A stretch of 64,000 nt of DNA from Catajapyx aquilonaris (Eukaryota), in assembly GCA_000934665.2 (NCBI GenBank), contig KZ538766.1, positions 1 through 64,000 on the forward strand, written 5' to 3'. The position numbers and the translations under genes are program-made. Numbering within the stretch: position 1 is the first letter of the stretch; every line of letters begins with the position of its first letter. The notes beneath the pieces are model-generated. The model saw only the letters and a program-made list of their open reading frames with translations. It did no database searches and was not told the DNA's origin. This document shows, piece after piece, positions 9,725-16,029 of the stretch.

Positions 9725-9980
9725 ATGGATACCCCGTGCTAGGCCTCCTTGGGCCTCTTAGGGATCATCTTTTATTCAACCGACTTTAATCATTGCCTGC
9801 GCTGTGATGGATTTTGATAGCGGGAGGAAACGGGAGAACCCCGAGAAAACCCACGCGAACACGGAGAGAACCCATTGAAACTCGATCCACATAAGCATAT
9901 ACTCAGTCTGACCCGGGGATCGAACTCAGGACCTTCGAGGTGGAAGGCTGCGGCGCTAACCATTCCGCCAGTGTCCTCCT
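9722..9980 (-). mobile_element. tRNA-derived SINE with V-SINE-like central domain
   Basis: A box TGGCGGAATGG and B box GAGTTCGATCC; body GTTCTCTCCGTGTTCGCGTGGGTTTTCTCGGGGTTCTCCCGTTTCCTCCC; 11-bp TSD TTACCCCTACT at 9711-9721 and 9981-9991. Confidence 0.75.
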
Positions 9981-10175
9981 TTACCCCTACTCTAACACAT
10001 GGACAGGTTTACCGATGAAGTTGGGTAAGAACCTAGAAATGCAGTCGCAAGTAATAAGCTTGTACGATTATCTTATACAGCAGGATCAATATTTCATCAT
10101 AAATAATAATTTCATTCAAAAAATAATTTATTTTTTGTTTTCGATTCACCAGCGAATGACAGAATTTCACAAATA

Positions 10176-10667
10176 ACGTCTCGGTGGCCGCCTTCTTGGC
10201 TGCAGGTTTTCCCCCCGGCTTCAGTTTCGACACCTCAATCAGCATGTTGCGGAATCCAAGTGTCAAACCCTGGAATCAACAGGCATTACATGAGTACAAT
10301 TTCATATTAATGCAAAAAAAAAACAATGCGATGAAACATTACAAATTGGGATCAGATTATAAGTCAAATCACAGGTGTTCATAACCCAATGCTCTGAATT
10401 AATGTGGGTTTCATCACATCCGGGCCTTGCAGCTCAAAATGGCGCTTTTAAAATTAATTAATGCACCGATAATTTGCTCACCAGATCTTTGTTGTAAATG
10501 ATGACGGGACATGCTTCTGGACACAGCGATGGTTGCGCATCTTTCCCTTTCCGGTATGGAATCGGAAGGACTCGCACGCCAGGTGGTATAGGGTTACACG
10601 GCAGCACCAGTCACCTCATTCTTCTCGCTGTACACACTGATCAACAGTCGGGCTCCCGTCACCGACT
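10176..10667 (-). pseudogene. Collapsed RpL4 duplicate hosting a snoRNA: pseudo-exon 10665-10482, intron 10481-10270, pseudo-exon from 10269
   Basis: [23 protein letters not shown] (exon 2 copy) is fused to a GKGKMRNHRCVQK-like exon 5 copy with a frameshift. GLTLGFRNMLIEVSKL (exon 6 copy) is fused to KPAAKKAA (tail). GT/AG sites intact; AATAAA at 10127-10132. Confidence 0.88.
10347..10422 (-). ncRNA. Box C/D snoRNA, SNORD88/snR76-like, copy 2 (in the mini-duplicate intron)
   Basis: C box GTGATGA, guide ATTCAGAGCATTGGG, D' ATGA, D CTGA; 10350-10417 is identical to 12060-12127. Confidence 0.85.
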
Positions 10668-10922
10668 GCAAGTAGATTTCTCGACATTTTACATTAGAAT
10701 AATGTTAACATATCAAATGGACAGCTAGACAAAAAATGAAGCCCATAGGAAATTTTCCTATGCGAGTGACTATCTCCATAATGTTAGTCGAGGTTACATT
10801 AGAAACTCCTGCTCACAGCATACGGACAAAATATCAGCCAGTTTACACCACCAATTAAGACAATGTATGTTTTCAGAGCACTTTATTCTGGCAGACTCGT
10901 TATTATTTACGACAAGCGTCTT

Positions 10923-13900
10923 TTAAGCCTTTGTGGTCTTCTCTGCAGGCTTGGGTGCCGCCTTCTTCTCTGCAGGCTTGGGTGCTTCCTTCTTGGCTGC
11001 AGGTTTGGGTGCTGCCTTCTTGGCTGCAGGCTTGGGTGCCGCCTTCTTGGCCGCAGGCTTGGTTGGCGGCTTCTTGGCTGCAGGCTTGGTTCCTGCCTTC
11101 TTGGCTGCAGGCTTGGGTGCTGCCTTCTTGGCCGCGGGCTTCTTGGCAGGCTTCTTCCCCTCGGCCTTCTTGGTCTTGGCCCTCAGCTTGGCTGCCCTTC
11201 GCTTCTTGATAACCCTCATGGCAGCCTTGTCTACGGGAGCAGGAAGCTGAAACGCACAAGCGGATAATTAGCATTTGTGAAGACTCTCGCAGTGTTCATC
11301 CGAGATAACACAACCGGTTTGAGATCAGAATAGTTCAATAATCACAATGCTTCATAAACACGGATCAAGGAGTCAAAACTGATATTGTGATCATCATGTC
11401 TCAAAGCTTTTGTTCTGTCCTGGGAGTCGAAGTGTCCCACTAATGCTGCATCATTTGCAAAAGACGAGGCGATAATAGGGAGATCTTACCCCTCGCTTCT
11501 TGGCCAACAAGGCTTCCCTGTGACGCTTTCTCCTAAGCTCCACGGCCCTGGCAACCTTCCTCTCAACCAAGGCGTATGGGTTCAGCCGAAGCATCGCACG
11601 AACATTCTTCAGCGGGTTCTTCTTAATCGGCCTCGTGTTTGTCCTCTTGCGCCTGGAAAAATCATGTGTTAAACCGAGCCGCAACGTTCAGACTCGAATA
11701 CTTACATGGGTTTCCTCAGGACCTTCTGGATCTCCTCGGACCTGAGAATCCTCATGAGGTCGGTGTTGGACATCTTGGGAACTGGCAGGTTGAAGCCCTT
11801 CTTCTTGGTGGATGGCTTCCTCCAGGTGCCGTAAAGGTCGTCCAGGCAGCGGAAGGCAGACTCGGTCCAGATGCAGAAACGGCCGAGATGACCACCGGGG
11901 GCAAGCTTCAGAAGGTTCAGTTTGGACACGTCAATCAGCTCAACTCCTGGGATGTTGCGGAATCCTCGCGTCAGGCCCTGTAAGCAACAGATGCATTAAG
12001 CTCGTGGCGAATTGATATAAAAGCAAAATTAAAGCGATGAAACTTTACAAATATGGTCAGATCAGATTATAAGTCAAATCACAGGTGTTCATAACCCAAT
12101 GCTCTGAATTAATGTGGGTTTCATCACGTCCGGCCTCAAAGTAGCAATTTCTTAAAAAATAATTGAAGTAATTTAGTAGTTGCTCACCTGATCTTTGTTG
12201 TAAATGATGAGGGGACCCAGCTTCTGGACACGGCGACGGTTGCGCATCTTACCCTTACCGGCACGGAAACGGCGAGACTTGTACACCTAGAAAGCAATTA
12301 ACATCGGTGAGTATTGGGCGACACAGTTTCTTTACAGGCTTTACATACTGTTGGTGCATTAATTGCTTGATATCAGAACATTAAGAGTTCAATAATCAGT
12401 GTTGTCATAAACACAGGCCAAGAACTTTTGCGTCATCATTTCTTGTCGTATTTTGATGGATCAGCTTGAGAGTCATGTCCAAAAATTTTACCTTCTGGAT
12501 GTCAGACCAGGCCTTGATGCGACGCAGGAAGATTGTGGCCTGCTTGGTCTTGTTGTATTCCTGGATCTTGTCCGACACAACCAGGGGAACCTCCGGGATC
12601 TCATTGATGGCATGGCCTAAACACAAAAGGCTGGGTTGGATTACGACAATTCATGTGTCCGTAAGTCAGACTATAATTTTCCCAAGGTTTGAGATCAGAA
12701 AAGTTCAATAATCACGATGCTTCATAAACACGGATCAAGGAGTCAAATTGATGTTGTCATCATCATGTCTCAAAGCCAGATTTCAGTTTGAAATTCTGTG
12801 GGAAAGTCAATGCAAAAAGTAGAGCGATCGCAGCCTATTTTTCCACGAACCTGGTGTACAAGCGATGCCTCAAAACTGCGTACCTTTAGCCATGACCAAA
12901 GCAGGGATTCCTGCTGCCGCGATGGCCGAGCAGACAGCATAACGCTTCTGGTGCAAGTTAATCTTGCGGTGCCAGCGACGCCAGGTCTTGGTCGGAGCAA
13001 ACATGCGTCCTCCACGGCACATGTTTCCAAACGCACCCTGGCCTGAGCGGTGGGTACCGCCACCACGTACGCGGGGAATACGAGCCACAGCACGCCCCGT
13101 ACCCCATGACTCCGCACTTGTCTGATGCCCTGAAAATGACCATATTTTCACATGTAAAATTATCTATCCCCAACCCTTCAATATGACCAGTACTTGGGCA
13201 CGTATTGAGATCAGATGCAGTTCAATAATCAAAGCACATCATAAACACAGGCCAAGAACGTTTGCATCATCACTTCTCTGTTTGAAACTGTACCAGAATA
13301 TTATGATCATCATCATTTTGAATGTTATTATTAGAGAACATATTTCTAGGTTTCAACGTACCTTTTATTATTATGATTATCATCATCATTTTACAATTAT
13401 TGGCATTATACCAGTTATCTAATCTGTTGGTTTTAACTTTTATTAGTGTTCAAACAGTTATAATAACTTACTAGTGTTCAAACAGTTATTATAATAACTG
13501 TTACCAGAGTTCAAACAGTTATTATAATAACTGTTATTAGTGTTCAAACAGTTATTATAATAACTGTTATTAGTGTACAAACGGTTATTATAATAACTGT
13601 TATTAGTGTACAAACAGTTATTATTATAACTGTTATTAGTGTTCAAACTGTTACCATTATAACTGTTATTAGTGTTCAAACTGTTAGTTATAACTGTTAT
13701 TAGTGTTCACTATTATTATTGTAACTGTTATTAGAATTTTCACTGCTATTAAATTTCAGTTATTTTAACCGTTATTAAATTTAAGCTATTTTAACTGTTA
13801 AAGCCATAATTATTGTAATTGTTATTTTATGCCACAAATATTTTAACTGTTAAGCCATAATTATTGTAATTGTTATTTTATGCCACAATTATTTTAACTG

Positions 13901-14940
13901 TTATTTAAGCCATAATTATTGTAATTGTTATTTTATGCCACAATTATTTTAACTGTTATTTATGCCATAATTATTGTAATTGTTATTTTATGCCAAATAT
14001 TTTAACTGTTATTTATGCCATAATTATTGTAATTGTTATTTTATGCCACAATTATTTTAACTGTTAAAGCCATAATTACTTTAACTGTTATTTTATGCCA
14101 TAATTATTTTAGCAAATGTTAATTTATTATTTTTGAACCTAACAAATTGGTTGAATGACAAGATGTTGTTTTCATGTAAGTGATGTACCTGCTTCGGCGC
14201 TCACGGCGTACGGCTGGCGCCTGTTCTTGGCCATGTTGACGTGGACGAAGTTGACCACGTCGGGGCGTATGGGCACCTTGAAAACCGCTGGGAGCGGCAC
14301 ACTGGCACCGGTCGCCTCATTCTTCTCGCTGTAAACGCTGATGAGAGGTCGGGCTGCTGCCACCGACTGGAAAGGCAAAGGATTACAACACTCTCTTTAG
14401 CTAGCTGCCAAGGAGATTTCTCCACGGGGTTCGTCACTCGATATACTACAGTTCATGACGGACTTCAACTGCGTGTCTTTTTTCCCCAAGTTATGCGATT
14501 TCCTGTCAGCTAATCATTGTTATATGCGGTCTATATTTAATGTTTGGGACTATCATTTTCGTCCAACTTTTTTTTTCATTTTATGTAACATTATCTTGCG
14601 TACGTATCTGCTCAGAGTTAAGTTTCACATCAACCTTGCAAATGAGCTGTATTTGGACGCAGGCATGTGTCCGCTCAAGTGCAGTCCAACGCAATTTACA
14701 TCATCATCACAGACACTTACTGTTGGCCTATTTGGAACACGTATTTTGGAACATTTTTGTTGGCGTGGTCGAAACTAGGCTAGGCCTAGGCCTGGCTTCG
14801 AACCTGGTTTTGCGACCCCTGCTGTCAGCCTGGGGGTGTCCCGCGGTGGTGGTCCTAAAGACCCTTCCAAACCTGACCCGCCTGGCTTAAAACCGGGCCG
14901 AGTTGGCCGTCCTAAACAGAAGGGGAAAGGACCTCACCAT
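10923..14940 (-). CDS. RpL4: 60S ribosomal protein L4 (uL4). Exons 14940-14938 (ATG only), 14366-14189, 13129-12884, 12616-12492, 12286-12188, 11977-11706, 11652-11490, 11246-10923
   Basis: [101 protein letters not shown] at 10882-10887. Confidence 0.98.
11318..11405 (-). ncRNA. SNORD18: Box C/D snoRNA U18-like, subtype A, RpL4 intron 7
   Basis: C ATGATGA, guide GACTCCTTGATCCGTGTTT, D' ATGA, C' GTGATTA, D CTGA, terminal stem TTTGAGA/TCTCAAA. U18 is hosted in RPL4 introns in vertebrates. Confidence 0.88.
12057..12132 (-). ncRNA. Box C/D snoRNA SNORD88/snR76-like, RpL4 intron 5
   Basis: Guide ATTCAGAGCATTGGG pairs, with one G.U, to conserved 28S CCCAGUGCUCUGAAU. The D'+5 rule lands on the third C (yeast Cm2197 equivalent). 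An extra TTTGAC element is complementary to the adjacent GUCAAA. Confidence 0.85.
12368..12443 (-). ncRNA. SNORD18: Box C/D snoRNA U18-like, subtype B, RpL4 intron 4
   Basis: C ATGATGA, guide TTCTTGGCCTGTGTTT, D' ATGA, C' TGATTA, D CTGA. Confidence 0.8.
12688..12774 (-). ncRNA. SNORD18: Box C/D snoRNA U18-like, subtype A, RpL4 intron 3
   Basis: Same boxes, guide and terminal stem as the 11318-11405 copy. Confidence 0.88.
13207..13278 (-). ncRNA. SNORD18: Box C/D snoRNA U18-like, subtype B, RpL4 intron 2
   Basis: C GTGATGA, guide TTCTTGGCCTGTGTTT, D' ATGA, C' TGATTA, D CTGA, stem GAGA/TCTC. Confidence 0.8.
13435..14112. repeat. Two adjacent AT-rich minisatellites (33-bp unit, then ~55-60-bp unit) in RpL4 intron 2
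   Basis: TAATAACTGTTATTAGTGTTCAAACAGTTATTA repeats, then GCCATAATTATTGTAATTGTTATTTTATGCCACAATTATTTTAACTGTT repeats. Confidence 0.9.
14605..14714 (-). ncRNA. SNORD16: Box C/D snoRNA U16-like, RpL4 intron 1
   Basis: C GTGATGA, GTAAATTGCGT and TGCCTGC elements complementary to the 18S GCAGGCGCGCAAAUUAC region, AAGGTTGA, D CTGA, stem TCTGT/GCAGA. The layout matches vertebrate U16, which is also hosted in RPL4. Confidence 0.8.
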
Positions 14941-16029
14941 TTTCGCAGCGTCTCTTCTCCGGGCCACGCCACGTTGATGGAAACCCGGCTGTGACGTCAC
15001 CGGATGTTGGCTACATATGCAAAGACGCCCAGTGCAGTACGCATGCTCAGTAGAGCCTCGTTATGATTGGGCAAGACTGTTCAATTGCGCGTGATGATTG
15101 GATGGTGATTTAGTGACTGGGTTGTGTAAACGGTACATGCAGCGCCAACTGGGAGCCGGGACTTAAACCAGAGCGCCTCTAGTGGCTGGTACTTGTAACA
15201 ACTCATTGAAATTACGAACGCTGAATATTTACGGATATAGTGCATAAAATATTGGAGTTTTAATATAACAGATCTGTACCTACCTGTCATTAAGTCATGG
15301 TTCAATACATAATATAGGAATTAGCCCATGAATACAATTGTGCGGGCCTGTCCTTTCCATCGTTCGCACCCCCGAGTAAGTCCCACCCCGTATAGACCTG
15401 CACCCACCTAAACGGGCTGAATTTCATACTCTGGTTCCTCTTCAATCCTCGTGTAAATCTTTCGCCTTTTACTAAAGATTTCCGTGGAGAGGTACACTCT
15501 GAGTCTTATGTAATTTCTTGTCGCCTGCCTGGAGCAGGCGGATAAACCAAATCAAAAGACAATACCCAAACATTTATTCACACCCAGAAAATGGGAGGTG
15601 GCCCGGGGAGGGCCTTTCTTGTCCATTTTCGGGATGTGCTGACCAGGTTCTGACCTTAATTTAATGTTATTTTATTTCAAAATAATATATTCAAAGTTAT
15701 GGCCGCCCTTCGGCAATCACCTTTTCTGCCTGTACTGGTAAATGAAGCTCTCAAAAAATCCGATTTCCTTCGTGATCTCGCCTTCATTTCCTATTATTGT
15801 ATTTGCAAAAATATTATTTATTACGACTCGCGGCCGCCCCTTGTCCAGTGCCTACTGTGCCTAATGGGAAATCCGCCGCTGACCGCCAATTTCCTTCTAC
15901 CGCCAACATACATTTTCCTTTGCCGCCAAAATAGTCCTGAGCGCCAAACTGAACAGGGATCCAAATTGGCGGAAGAGGAAATTGGCGCTCAGGACTACTA
16001 CTGCTGGCGGTAACGAAAATTGGCGGCTG

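Follow-up and report, generated by a model that had tools for sequence, protein, structure and literature searches.

Intronic snoRNAs multiply within their host genes and some hosts have lost their coding value; intermediates between a coding gene and a mere carrier are seldom seen. A decayed piece of RpL4 lying directly behind the intact gene in Catajapyx aquilonaris raises the question of how a snoRNA copy can be kept up without a gene of its own. The locus was analysed in a window of 64,000 nt (assembly GCA_000934665.2, contig KZ538766.1, positions 1 to 64,000). The first-pass annotation had read the piece as a protein gene turning into a non-coding snoRNA host. This reading was supported: the exons looked neutral and the intron was spliced. 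However, the mini-copy behaved as an extension of the RpL4 3' UTR and not as its own gene. The locus therefore probably holds a cis-duplicated snoRNA intron that is kept intact while its exons decay, and that a read-through isoform of RpL4 carries in its 3' UTR.

The parent gene and its snoRNA intron were located as follows.

10887-14940, minus strand: RpL4 parent gene; ATG at 14940-14938, stop codon TAA at 10925-10923, eight exons, 469 aa
11978-12187, minus strand: parent intron 5, the snoRNA host, 210 nt; RNA joint 11976/12187, GT..AG, ends checked in the sequence
12060-12127, minus strand: parent snoRNA core, box C/D, starting at the C box and reaching 2 nt beyond the D box; identical to 10350-10417 over all 68 nt

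Joining the RpL4 exons gave a 1410-nt CDS with one stop only, the terminal one. Pfam matches to Ribosomal_L4 and Ribos_L4_asso_C were found in exons 3 and 6, and the product matched PDB uL4 chains with E values down to 7e-43. Five introns were verified by joints in a contig of run X5, a single public run of unrecorded kind that was used as contigs only and came from a second study relative to the DNA runs. Since a 1239-nt X5 contig of RpL4 had five introns removed, X5 was judged to be RNA-derived. The main mRNA contig had its 3' end at 10886, inside the AATAAA (10887-10882) that had been taken for the RpL4 poly(A) signal; AATAAT at 10907-10902 is the likelier signal for this end. Besides U16, the parent carries four U18-like snoRNAs and one further snoRNA.

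Behind the parent lay a collinear, partial copy of RpL4 of 550 bp (10671-10120, minus strand), damaged by a stop codon, a frameshift and deletions. All of the pieces described from the first reading were recovered on the minus strand by pairwise alignment, blastn and reading of the sequence.

10672-10886, minus strand: spacer from the main RpL4 mRNA end to the mini-copy, 215 bp; covered by read-through RNA
10604-10671, minus strand: exon-2-like piece; 56/68 identical to the exon 2 start plus acceptor at 14372-14305
10482-10580, minus strand: exon-5-like piece; against 12286-12188, 81 matches, 17 mismatches and 2 gap columns, the frameshift
10270-10481, minus strand: mini intron, 212 nt, GTGAGC...TTCCAG; spliced out in RNA
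10350-10417, minus strand: mini snoRNA core; C box 10417-10411, D' guide 10399-10384, D' box AUGA 10382-10379, D box 10355-10352
10220-10269, minus strand: exon-6-like piece; 43/50 identical to the exon 6 start, with a 12-nt deletion
10180-10222, minus strand: remnant of the lysine/alanine/proline tail repeat of exon 8; blastn 74-83% to several 27-nt units, E 4.6e-4 to 1e-3
10127-10132, minus strand: AATAAA 3' of the mini-copy, a candidate signal from reading of the sequence; the X5 contig stops earlier, at ~10180

The exon-2-like piece retained the TTGCAG acceptor (10671-10666). Just 3' of it, within 10581-10603, an in-frame TAA at 10596-10594 formed the 24th codon; these 23 nt (10603-10581), between the exon-2-like and exon-5-like pieces, were assigned no parent counterpart on alignment. 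The exon-5-like piece was the upstream exon of the mini intron and the exon-6-like piece its downstream exon. The mini intron was near native length as described (212 nt, against 210 nt in parent intron 5), with intact splice ends. The ORF list, tRNA scan and tandem-repeat scan had no bearing on the mini-copy.

The arrangement was present in DNA. Three DNA runs from one sample (X1, X2 and X4) each yielded contigs 9941-10379 and 10388-11376 with 0 differences, and the second of these linked the last RpL4 exons with the mini snoRNA in 3/3 runs. The DNA runs may share the sample of the assembly and hence not be independent of it. However, the 10388-11376 contig recurred without differences in all three, and RNA from the second study matched copy-specific sequence with 0 differences over 416 nt, so that an assembly artefact is scarcely credible. 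Chance similarity is equally so, with a blastn E of 1.5e-71 between the mini-copy and its parent.

This RNA evidence came from a 505-nt X5 contig that was unbroken over the 416 nt from 10896 to 10481. It passed from the RpL4 3' UTR across the whole spacer (215 bp) and on through the exon-2-like piece, indicating read-through and making a separate promoter unneeded. In the same contig, a joint from 10268 to 10481 (GT..AG; recorded as 'CT..AC (cut +1)') skipped the 212 nt of 10481-10270 and was followed by 89 nt, which held the exon-6-like piece and ran to ~10180. The 10482/10269 junction that had been predicted was thus found in RNA, and no such splice joint occurred in the three DNA runs. The joint was supported by 1 contig of X5, with a word depth of 9.81 compared with 271.3 for the mRNA contig, or ~3.6% by this rough measure. 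No X5 contig covered the mini intron, parent intron 5 or the region beyond ~10180; contigs lose rare forms and short RNAs, and these gaps say nothing on the snoRNA, the 3' end or alternative splicing.

Two routes of expression had been suggested from the first reading. Read-through from RpL4 was borne out by the contig continuous from the 3' UTR, whereas alternative splicing into the 10665 acceptor was unsupported, the acceptor being unused in the single RNA contig. The mini-copy could instead be an independent non-coding snoRNA host with its own start in or just behind the last RpL4 exon, its overlap with the 3' UTR being coincidental. In favour of this, the read-through contig, with its start at 10896, overlaps the end of the mRNA contig by no more than 11 nt, and contigs cannot prove a single molecule. 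However, the contig does begin before the point where the main RpL4 mRNA ends, and the exon-2 acceptor was read through and not spliced into. The earlier observation that neither an ATG exon nor a promoter is visible in the spacer also held: blastn of the whole RpL4 gene against the rest of the window returned the two known pieces only, with no ATG exon and no homologue of the RpL4 promoter or first exon in 10672-10886, and the RNA contig was continuous. An independent host is thus very improbable. The mini-copy would be transcribed from the RpL4 promoter on a single molecule; contigs as such place neither the start at that promoter nor the end on one molecule.

How the copy arose is a separate matter. 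Its adjacent, same-strand and collinear placement, 215 bp behind the parent, fits tandem duplication. A semi-processed retrocopy, reverse-transcribed from an aberrant RpL4 RNA that had been only partly spliced, would account for the loss of introns 2, 3, 4, 6 and 7 with one intron retained, and for exon 5 homology that starts at, or within 1 nt of, the first base of exon 5. Such an origin is nevertheless improbable. The intron-1 acceptor is kept, perhaps with 20 nt of intron 1 (a weak match; 15/300 shuffles were as good), and the other breakpoints lie inside exons, in exon 2 after ~62 nt and where exon 6 is joined to exon 8 repeats. Reading of the sequence revealed neither a poly(A) tract nor a target-site duplication. 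Homology to the parent 3' UTR was not significant: when the mini 3' end (10200-10040) was compared with the RpL4 3' UTR and downstream DNA, 282/300 shuffles were as good. A fully processed (retro)pseudogene was rejected on the retained 212-nt intron and intron-1 acceptor, the position 215 bp from the parent, and the missing poly(A) tract and duplication.

Judged by boxes, terminal stem and antisense element, the RNA encoded in both introns is a box C/D guide. The C box GUGAUGA (10417-10411) and D box CUGA (10355-10352) were intact and the same as in the parent. The terminal stem GGA/UCC was kept in the mini-copy despite a 3-nt deletion, with a dG of -3.5 kcal/mol; that of the parent was stronger, at -6.1 kcal/mol, and those of RpL4's other snoRNAs (the U18 copies) ranged from -0.1 to -6.9. 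In the mini-copy the D box lay 82 nt from the 3' splice site, a spacing kept though the flank carries 12 gap columns; in RpL4's five other short-spaced snoRNAs the spacing was 78-86 nt. Rfam gave no match on either snoRNA copy at the gathering score, and RpL4's U16 and U18 copies likewise fell below it. At E up to 1, the only match was SNORD126 on the parent copy (22.6 bits, E 0.38), which is at chance level; the mini copy had none. Minimum-free-energy folding of the two copies gave z-scores of -0.32 and -0.45 and thus no signal, as is usual for box C/D RNAs.

The D' guide formed a 16-bp duplex (14 Watson-Crick pairs and 2 G-U) with GCCCAGUGCUCUGAAU, part of a universally conserved element of 28S rRNA, in 8/9 long rDNA loci; in the ninth, L009, the 16-bp duplex had 3 G-U. 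The target element was present in 14/14 rDNA loci covering the region; these loci are the rDNA of metagenome eukaryotes and not of C. aquilonaris itself. When guides were shuffled with the D' anchor in place, 0/1000 attained 16 bp. Unanchored shuffles of the whole snoRNA attained 16 bp somewhere in a 12.4-kb rDNA locus in 3/60 cases; this is a weak control, and the D'-anchored one was therefore used instead. The fifth-nucleotide rule led to the third C of the target element. This C fitted the yeast offsets to Am2220, Am2256, m5C2278, Am2280, Am2281 and Gm2288 in 13/19 loci, and the same offsets shifted by +/-1 or 2 fitted in 0/19. Applied to RpL4's U18 copies, which have the same AUGA D' box, the rule recovered the known U18 site Am649. 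The D' guide is thus predicted to point to the cytidine equivalent to yeast Cm2197 (snR76) and human Cm3680 (SNORD88). For the D guide, which precedes the D box, no convincing match to conserved rRNA emerged (best 12-13 bp, rich in G-U), and it was treated as an orphan.

The snoRNA core was 68/68 identical to the parent, as first noted. The longest common substring of the mini-copy and the parent was exactly these 68 nt (10417-10350 = 12127-12060), of which the 64-kb window held two copies only. Aligned columns outside the tract comprised 278 matches and 69 mismatches (80% identity, 278/347); the tract differed from all other aligned columns with a Fisher p of 1.6e-6 and from the intron flanks with 3.1e-7. 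At the outside identity, the chance of 68 unchanged nt was 0.801^68 = 2.8e-7.

The mini exons were 82-86% identical to the parent, compared with 100% for the snoRNA. Their differences fell 9/10/16 on codon positions 1/2/3, and 19/35 were nonsynonymous. By this pattern the exons look neutral and pseudogene-like, and in the comparison of exon with snoRNA divergence proposed at the outset the snoRNA was the less diverged. Codon positions 1 and 2 differed at 19/141 sites, and from this rate a neutral stretch of 68 nt in the mini lineage would have stayed unchanged with a probability of ~5e-5.

Selection is one explanation of such identity and gene conversion the other. An identity tract extending well beyond the snoRNA would have spoken for conversion; the tract ended 1 nt before the C box, where there was a mismatch at -1, and 2 nt after the D box, at a 3-nt indel. 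The flanks next to it were 70-79% identical with 12 gap columns each, while the 26 nt directly 3' were, two indels aside, ~95% alike. Calibration came from the old U18 paralogues of introns 3 and 7, in which 65/73 core columns were kept although the flanks matched no better than shuffled sequence. With a flank divergence of ~0.25-0.3, the lack of any change in 68 nt is thus compatible with selection alone.

The strongest competing account is that the mini-copy is a dying relic, its identity due to recent short-tract gene conversion from parent intron 5, its read-through and splicing the noise of a very highly expressed gene with duplicated splice sites that are yet to decay, and its snoRNA an unselected by-product. 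The identity spans all 68 nt, including spacers without a recognised role and the orphan D guide, and similarity to the parent stays high over the 26 nt that follow on the 3' side. For snoRNA arrays, conversion and birth-and-death have been reported (PMC8789076). At ~80% identity, the four essential splice-site bases could have been retained by chance with a probability of ~0.4. If read-through amounts to no more than a few % of RpL4 transcription (the contig had ~3.6% of the mRNA contig word depth), the copy would add little supply, since each RpL4 transcript already yields one snoRNA, and this weakens the case for strong selection. On the other hand, under conversion both ends of the tract would need to fall at the edges of the snoRNA, no more than 1 nt from the C box and 2 nt from the D box, between flanks as diverged as these, and conversion between strongly diverged flanks is expected to be rare. 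The snoRNA-to-3'-splice-site spacing and the terminal stem were retained despite several indels, and the U18 calibration leaves the perfect identity explicable by selection alone. We consider the relic account unlikely, yet clearly less so than any other alternative to the explanation preferred here, and we infer that purifying selection is the cause of the identity.

A kept snoRNA intron in a read-through isoform would work as follows. A tandem partial duplicate of RpL4, made at the DNA level, would have decayed to an 'exon - snoRNA intron - exon' cassette within an extended RpL4 3' UTR. Most RpL4 transcripts would terminate at ~10886, and a minority would continue through the 215-bp spacer and the dead exon-2 and exon-5 pieces. 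The spliceosome takes out the 212-nt mini intron (10481-10270), and trimming of the excised intron would yield the box C/D snoRNA a second time, which may then be released and function. Its D' guide would direct 2'-O-methylation of the 28S cytidine of the snR76/SNORD88 site. In the spliced read-through mRNA the RpL4 stop codon is followed, 441 nt on, by an exon junction, and this mRNA should for this reason be a substrate of nonsense-mediated decay (NMD), like the spliced RNAs of non-coding snoRNA hosts.

The nearest known systems are the U16 and U18 cis-duplicates of vertebrate RPL4. Chicken RPL4 carries U16 in introns 1 and 3 and U18 in introns 2, 5 and 6, and intragenic (cis) duplication is described as the main source of snoRNA paralogues (PMC2653536). 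The mini-copy likewise adds a same-strand snoRNA copy to the RpL4 transcription unit, in a read-through contig from which the intron was removed by splicing. Unlike the vertebrate copies, the mini snoRNA is placed past its host's stop codon and poly(A) site, amid decayed exons, and is reached only by read-through. The locus is thus a variant on known cis-duplicated intronic snoRNAs. In the literature searched, no described snoRNA copy behind its host's poly(A) site and reached by read-through was found.

Hosts of the GAS5/UHG type are separate genes with their own 5'TOP promoters. The mini-copy resembles them in having a spliced transcript with unconserved exons of no coding value, a conserved intronic snoRNA as the product, and a spliced RNA expected to be an NMD target; GAS5 is non-coding and subject to NMD (PMC10234308). 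It differs in that it has no first exon or promoter, depends on RpL4, and has exons that are a recognisable pseudogene of the neighbouring gene. Classification as an autonomous host of this type was rejected, there being no own promoter or first exon and the RNA contig starting in the RpL4 3' UTR.

SnoRNA retroposons and retrocopies (snoRTs) are dispersed and made through RNA. Like them, the mini-copy is an extra snoRNA copy carrying pieces of the parental host; unlike them, it is adjacent, collinear and on the same strand, with a full intron, working splice sites and no poly(A) or target-site duplication. The class is named in PMC11028025. Long non-coding RNAs as fossils of coding genes are treated in PMC5577775.

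Within 5 kb, the locus displays an intact parent, pseudogene-like duplicate exons, a snoRNA identical at 68/68 positions, and read-through RNA that is correctly spliced. It could be a nascent non-coding snoRNA host, an RpL4 duplicate reduced to splice sites and snoRNA and fed by the parent promoter, where a leaky, non-canonical RpL4 poly(A) site divides transcription between the mRNA and an NMD-destined, snoRNA-only isoform. We hold this broader view to be doubtful. If true and general, it would explain why non-coding snoRNA hosts are similar to ribosomal-protein genes in promoter type and regulation; further intermediates would then be sought behind such genes, which makes the question testable. 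The locus also offers a testable model for the upkeep of a snoRNA copy outside a gene of its own, for 3'-end read-through with NMD as a possible route of small-RNA production, and for telling selection from gene conversion on a very short element.

The predicted target ties the snoRNA to a known pair of guides. Yeast snR76 guides Cm2197 (PMC5344495) and has been equated with HBII-180a/b/c (PMC2653536). SNORD88A/B/C guide LSU-C3680, 43 nt from G3723, and GCCCAGUGCU is part of an antisense oligonucleotide published against them (PMC10911272). The same motif occurs in the target element of the D' guide, and by hand count a G sits 43 nt after the third C of this element. The predicted target is thus the same cytidine as that of SNORD88A/B/C (HBII-180) and snR76. 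In contrast to these, the snoRNA had no match to an Rfam family of theirs at E up to 1, is hosted by RpL4, and has a layout resembling RpL4's U18 copies. From its guide and target it is predicted to be a functional equivalent of SNORD88/snR76 and not an established family member, and a guide of this type in RpL4 would have a host unlike those in human and chicken.

When 10760-10050 was compared with the RpL4 gene by blastn, three collinear matches were obtained, and these made up a decayed partial duplicate (the mini-copy).

Elements of the RpL4 mini-copy
10671-10604, minus strand: exon-2 piece (blastn, start of exon 2, 82%)
10580-10220, minus strand: exon 5, intron 5 and start of exon 6 (blastn, 76%, E 1.5e-71)
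10222-10180, minus strand: tail piece (blastn, 27-nt tail repeats, E 4.6e-4 to 1e-3)
10132-10127, minus strand: AATAAA (read from sequence)

The reading frame of the mini-copy was ended by a TAA at the 24th codon (10596-10594). Its intron was 212 nt long and that of the parent (intron 5) 210 nt, both starting with GTGAGC. The first-pass annotation had thus described the mini-copy accurately, as the region alignments also showed. No further RpL4 fragments were present elsewhere in the window. The parent gene, also on the minus strand, ran from ATG 14940-14938 to TAA 10925-10923; its eight exons, joined by coordinates, gave a 1410-nt frame with a single terminal stop (469 aa). Exons 3 and 6 matched Pfam Ribosomal_L4 and Ribos_L4_asso_C, and exon 6 matched uL4 chains in PDB with E down to 7e-43. 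Its C-terminal tail (10943-11141, minus strand) held 7.4 copies of the 27-nt repeat at 87% identity, encoding a lysine/alanine/proline-rich extension. The origin of the mini-copy is best explained by a tandem duplication of DNA with later deletions, because the copy is adjacent to the parent, collinear and on the same strand, and because the acceptor and a whole intron were kept while several breakpoints fell inside exons. An RNA-mediated origin, to which the absence of five introns and the start of exon-5 homology at its first base would point, appears improbable; tests for remnants of intron 1 or of the RpL4 3' UTR at the mini-copy were weak or negative.

Four of the sequencing runs (X1-X4) were DNA from one sample, the fifth (X5) came from another study and was of unrecorded kind, and none was recorded as RNA; contigs of X1, X2, X4 and X5 were compared over 9800-15200. 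X5 contained a 1239-nt RpL4 contig from which introns 3 to 7 had been removed at GT..AG joints, and none of these joints was found in the DNA runs, indicating that X5 was RNA-derived. A second X5 contig of 505 nt (record 25) matched 10896-10481 over its first 416 letters with 0 differing letters. The remaining 89 letters followed a 212-nt jump, reported as "CT..AC, cut +1", which on the minus strand corresponds to removal of a GT..AG intron at 10481-10270; the junction 10482/10269, named earlier as the one to look for in RNA, was therefore present with the exact 212-nt intron. The main mRNA contig stopped at 10886, inside AATAAA 10887-10882, and the second contig started at 10896, showing that RNA passes the usual RpL4 3' end, the 215-bp spacer and the retained exon-2 acceptor. 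The earlier proposal of expression by read-through from RpL4 was supported, but splicing into the exon-2 acceptor was not, as this acceptor was unused in the contig. Word depth was 9.81 for the read-through contig versus 271.3 for the mRNA contig, which very roughly puts the extended form at a few per cent of the mRNA level. AATAAT 10907-10902 is a likelier poly(A) signal of the main mRNA than AATAAA 10887-10882, giving a 3' UTR of just ~36 nt; such a non-canonical signal might explain why read-through occurs. DNA contigs 9941-10379 and 10388-11376 were recovered without differences in all three DNA runs compared, indicating that the tandem arrangement is real at the level of reads, but the assembly may itself have been built from these runs. 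The DNA contigs were interrupted inside the 68-nt repeat, in the parent as well as in the mini-copy, which is what a perfect repeat exceeding the assembler's word length would cause.

At permissive Rfam thresholds, snoRNAs were found in most RpL4 introns. Intron 5 held a further box C/D RNA whose single Rfam hit was SNORD126 (22.6 bits, E 0.38), which leaves it without a credible Rfam family.

Intron snoRNAs of RpL4 and the mini-copy, with the distance from D box to 3' splice site (SNORD18-like: Rfam 30.8-33.4 bits, below gathering)
Intron 1, minus strand: SNORD16 (U16), Rfam 34.4 bits, below gathering
13207-13278, minus strand: SNORD18-like (U18), intron 2, 81 nt
12691-12771, minus strand: SNORD18-like (U18), intron 3, 78 nt
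12369-12444, minus strand: SNORD18-like (U18), intron 4, 86 nt
12127-12060, minus strand: parent snoRNA, intron 5, 84 nt
11321-11402, minus strand: SNORD18-like (U18), intron 7, 78 nt
10417-10350, minus strand: mini snoRNA, 82 nt

When the four U18 copies were aligned with the parent and mini snoRNAs, a common layout was observed: C box, guide then UUAUGA, an internal GUGAUU-like box, then UCUGAUC. The D' box was AUGA in all six. Applied to the U18 copies, this box and the fifth-nucleotide rule returned the known U18 site Am649, validating the D' box reading. Targets were searched in eukaryotic rDNA from metagenome contigs (found with a U18 target motif probe) rather than in Catajapyx rRNA. 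Nucleotides 19-34 of the snoRNA formed a 16-bp duplex with GCCCAGUGCUCUGAAU (14 Watson-Crick and 2 G-U pairs) in 8 of 9 rDNA loci >7 kb; the ninth (L009) carried GCCCAGUGCUCUGGAU, with 3 G-U in the duplex. The target element was present in 14 of 14 loci reaching far enough, and the duplex began at the second base upstream of AUGA. Unanchored, 3 of 60 whole-snoRNA shuffles reached 16 bp somewhere in a 12.4-kb locus, so a duplex of this length says little by itself; when the pairing was anchored at the D' box, none of 1000 shuffled guides reached it (maximum 15). Within GCCCAG, the fifth-nucleotide rule singles out the third C as the predicted target. With positions counted from this C, the letters expected for yeast Am2220, Am2256, m5C2278, Am2280, Am2281 and Gm2288 (positions from the table in PMC5344495) were all present in 13 of 19 loci, versus 0 of 19 with registers shifted by 1 or 2, indicating that this C is yeast C2197. 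C2197 is guided by snR76 (PMC5344495), which a chicken snoRNA catalogue equates with human HBII-180a/b/c (PMC2653536). LSU-C3680, 43 nt from G3723, is guided by SNORD88A/B/C, and a published antisense oligonucleotide against these contains GCCCAGUGCU (PMC10911272). The intron-5/mini snoRNA is a predicted functional equivalent of SNORD88/snR76; neither copy had an Rfam match to that sequence family at E up to 1. For the second guide, next to the D box, no conserved rRNA match was found in the metagenome rDNA loci. The parent and mini snoRNAs shared U18-like box layout and spacing, with 32 invariant columns among the six sequences, and may derive from a U18 copy through cis-duplication with a switch of guide. 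The U18 copies fell into two guide variants (introns 3/7 and introns 2/4), and pairing by hand with the conserved 28S target left a single non-standard position in each; at the position where the intron 3/7 guide calls for U, 106 of 110 metagenome rDNA loci had C.

The longest common substring of mini-copy and parent was exactly 68 nt (10417-10350 and 12127-12060), and this snoRNA core occurred only twice within the window.

Mini-copy aligned with parent, matches/mismatches
Exon 2: 56/12
Exon 5: 81/17, 2 gap columns
5' intron flank: 39/17, 12 gap columns
snoRNA: 68/0
3' intron flank: 59/16, 12 gap columns
Exon 6: 43/7, 12-nt deletion

The tract differed significantly from the other aligned columns (278 matches, 69 mismatches; Fisher p = 1.6e-6) and from the intron flanks alone (p = 3.1e-7). 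Differences in the exon pieces were spread over codon positions 1/2/3 as 9/10/16 (chi-square p = 0.26) and 19 of 35 were nonsynonymous, indicating pseudogene-like evolution of the mini-copy exons. Positions 1 and 2 had changed almost only in the mini-copy lineage and differed at 19 of 141 sites (13.5%); third positions (16/69) and intron flanks (33/131) differed at 23-25%, as expected with both lineages drifting. At 13.5%, an untouched neutral 68-nt stretch has, by our arithmetic, a probability of ~5e-5. The tract ended at a mismatch 1 base ahead of the C box and, on the other side, at a 3-nt indel 2 bases behind the D box; an extension well beyond the snoRNA, named earlier as a sign of recent gene conversion, was thus not seen. 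This coincidence of both ends with the snoRNA and the many indels directly outside argue against short-tract conversion on a relic, which we consider rather unlikely, even though the perfect identity takes in the spacers as well as the orphan guide, similarity to the parent continues over 26 nt 3' of the tract, and the low apparent read-through would add little to a snoRNA already made from every RpL4 transcript. Calibration on RpL4's own old U18 paralogues favoured selection: introns 3 and 7 kept 65 of 73 core columns with flanks at shuffled-sequence level, and introns 2 and 4 kept 51 of 68. Under such constraint ~1-2 changes are expected in the mini snoRNA, so zero is unremarkable. The mini snoRNA is probably a kept, working copy, maintained by selection perhaps helped by conversion.

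The spacing from D box to acceptor was kept in the mini-copy despite the 12 gap columns in its 3' flank, and U16 alone among the RpL4 snoRNAs lay far from its acceptor; a fixed branch-point distance has been shown to matter for a few intronic box C/D snoRNAs. The mini terminal stem GGA/UCC was intact despite a 3-nt deletion (-3.5 versus -6.1 kcal/mol in the parent; U18 copies, -0.1 to -6.9).

Most RpL4 transcripts would be cleaved at ~10886, 15-20 nt past AATAAT, and some, started at the RpL4 promoter, would run on in a single molecule. Removal of the 212-nt intron would then rely on splice sites carried by the decayed exon-5 and exon-6 pieces, and the snoRNA would be trimmed from the excised intron; in the RpL4 mRNA that is left, 441 nt would separate the stop codon from the exon junction behind it. 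An exon junction more than ~50-55 nt after the stop usually marks an RNA for nonsense-mediated decay (NMD), so the read-through mRNA should be an NMD substrate. Its predicted fate resembles that of the non-coding host GAS5, whose spliced RNA is degraded by NMD (PMC10234308). Cis-duplication of snoRNA introns is already known (PMC2653536), as are non-coding snoRNA hosts and NMD-coupled isoforms. The RpL4 cassette lies behind its host's own stop codon and poly(A) site, and a decayed partial host duplicate acting as a read-through 3'-UTR snoRNA-intron cassette was not found in the literature searched. The case comes from one genome and one RNA contig.

Directly downstream of the mini-copy, a tRNA-like repeat (~9800-9980) had many loose ends at 9895 and 9970 and a summed DNA word depth of 166,650-293,169 versus ~20-37 for single-copy sequence, indicating a very abundant SINE-like element; ARAGORN called no tRNA there. 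Most of RpL4 intron 2 (1059 nt) was taken up, upstream of its U18, by two large AT-rich minisatellites (13434-14111; periods 33 and 28/55/108, 3 to 11 copies). A second haplotype, with ~20 substitutions and 4 small indels in RpL4 intron 1 and the 5' end (14370-14425 and 14820-14959), was present in X2 and X4 but not X1, showing that the sample was highly heterozygous or pooled; no variants inside the mini-copy were listed among the sequencing-run contigs. Low-depth X5 contigs covered 13219-13423 (3.1) and 14531-14722 (2.2), over the intron pieces with the intron-2 U18 and U16, indicating that some snoRNA-bearing intron RNA was captured in this library. The single Rfam hit at gathering score in the whole window was a full-length U5 spliceosomal snRNA gene (15426-15541, plus strand; 83 bits against a gathering score of 40), which is oriented opposite to RpL4 and begins ~490 bp upstream of its ATG.
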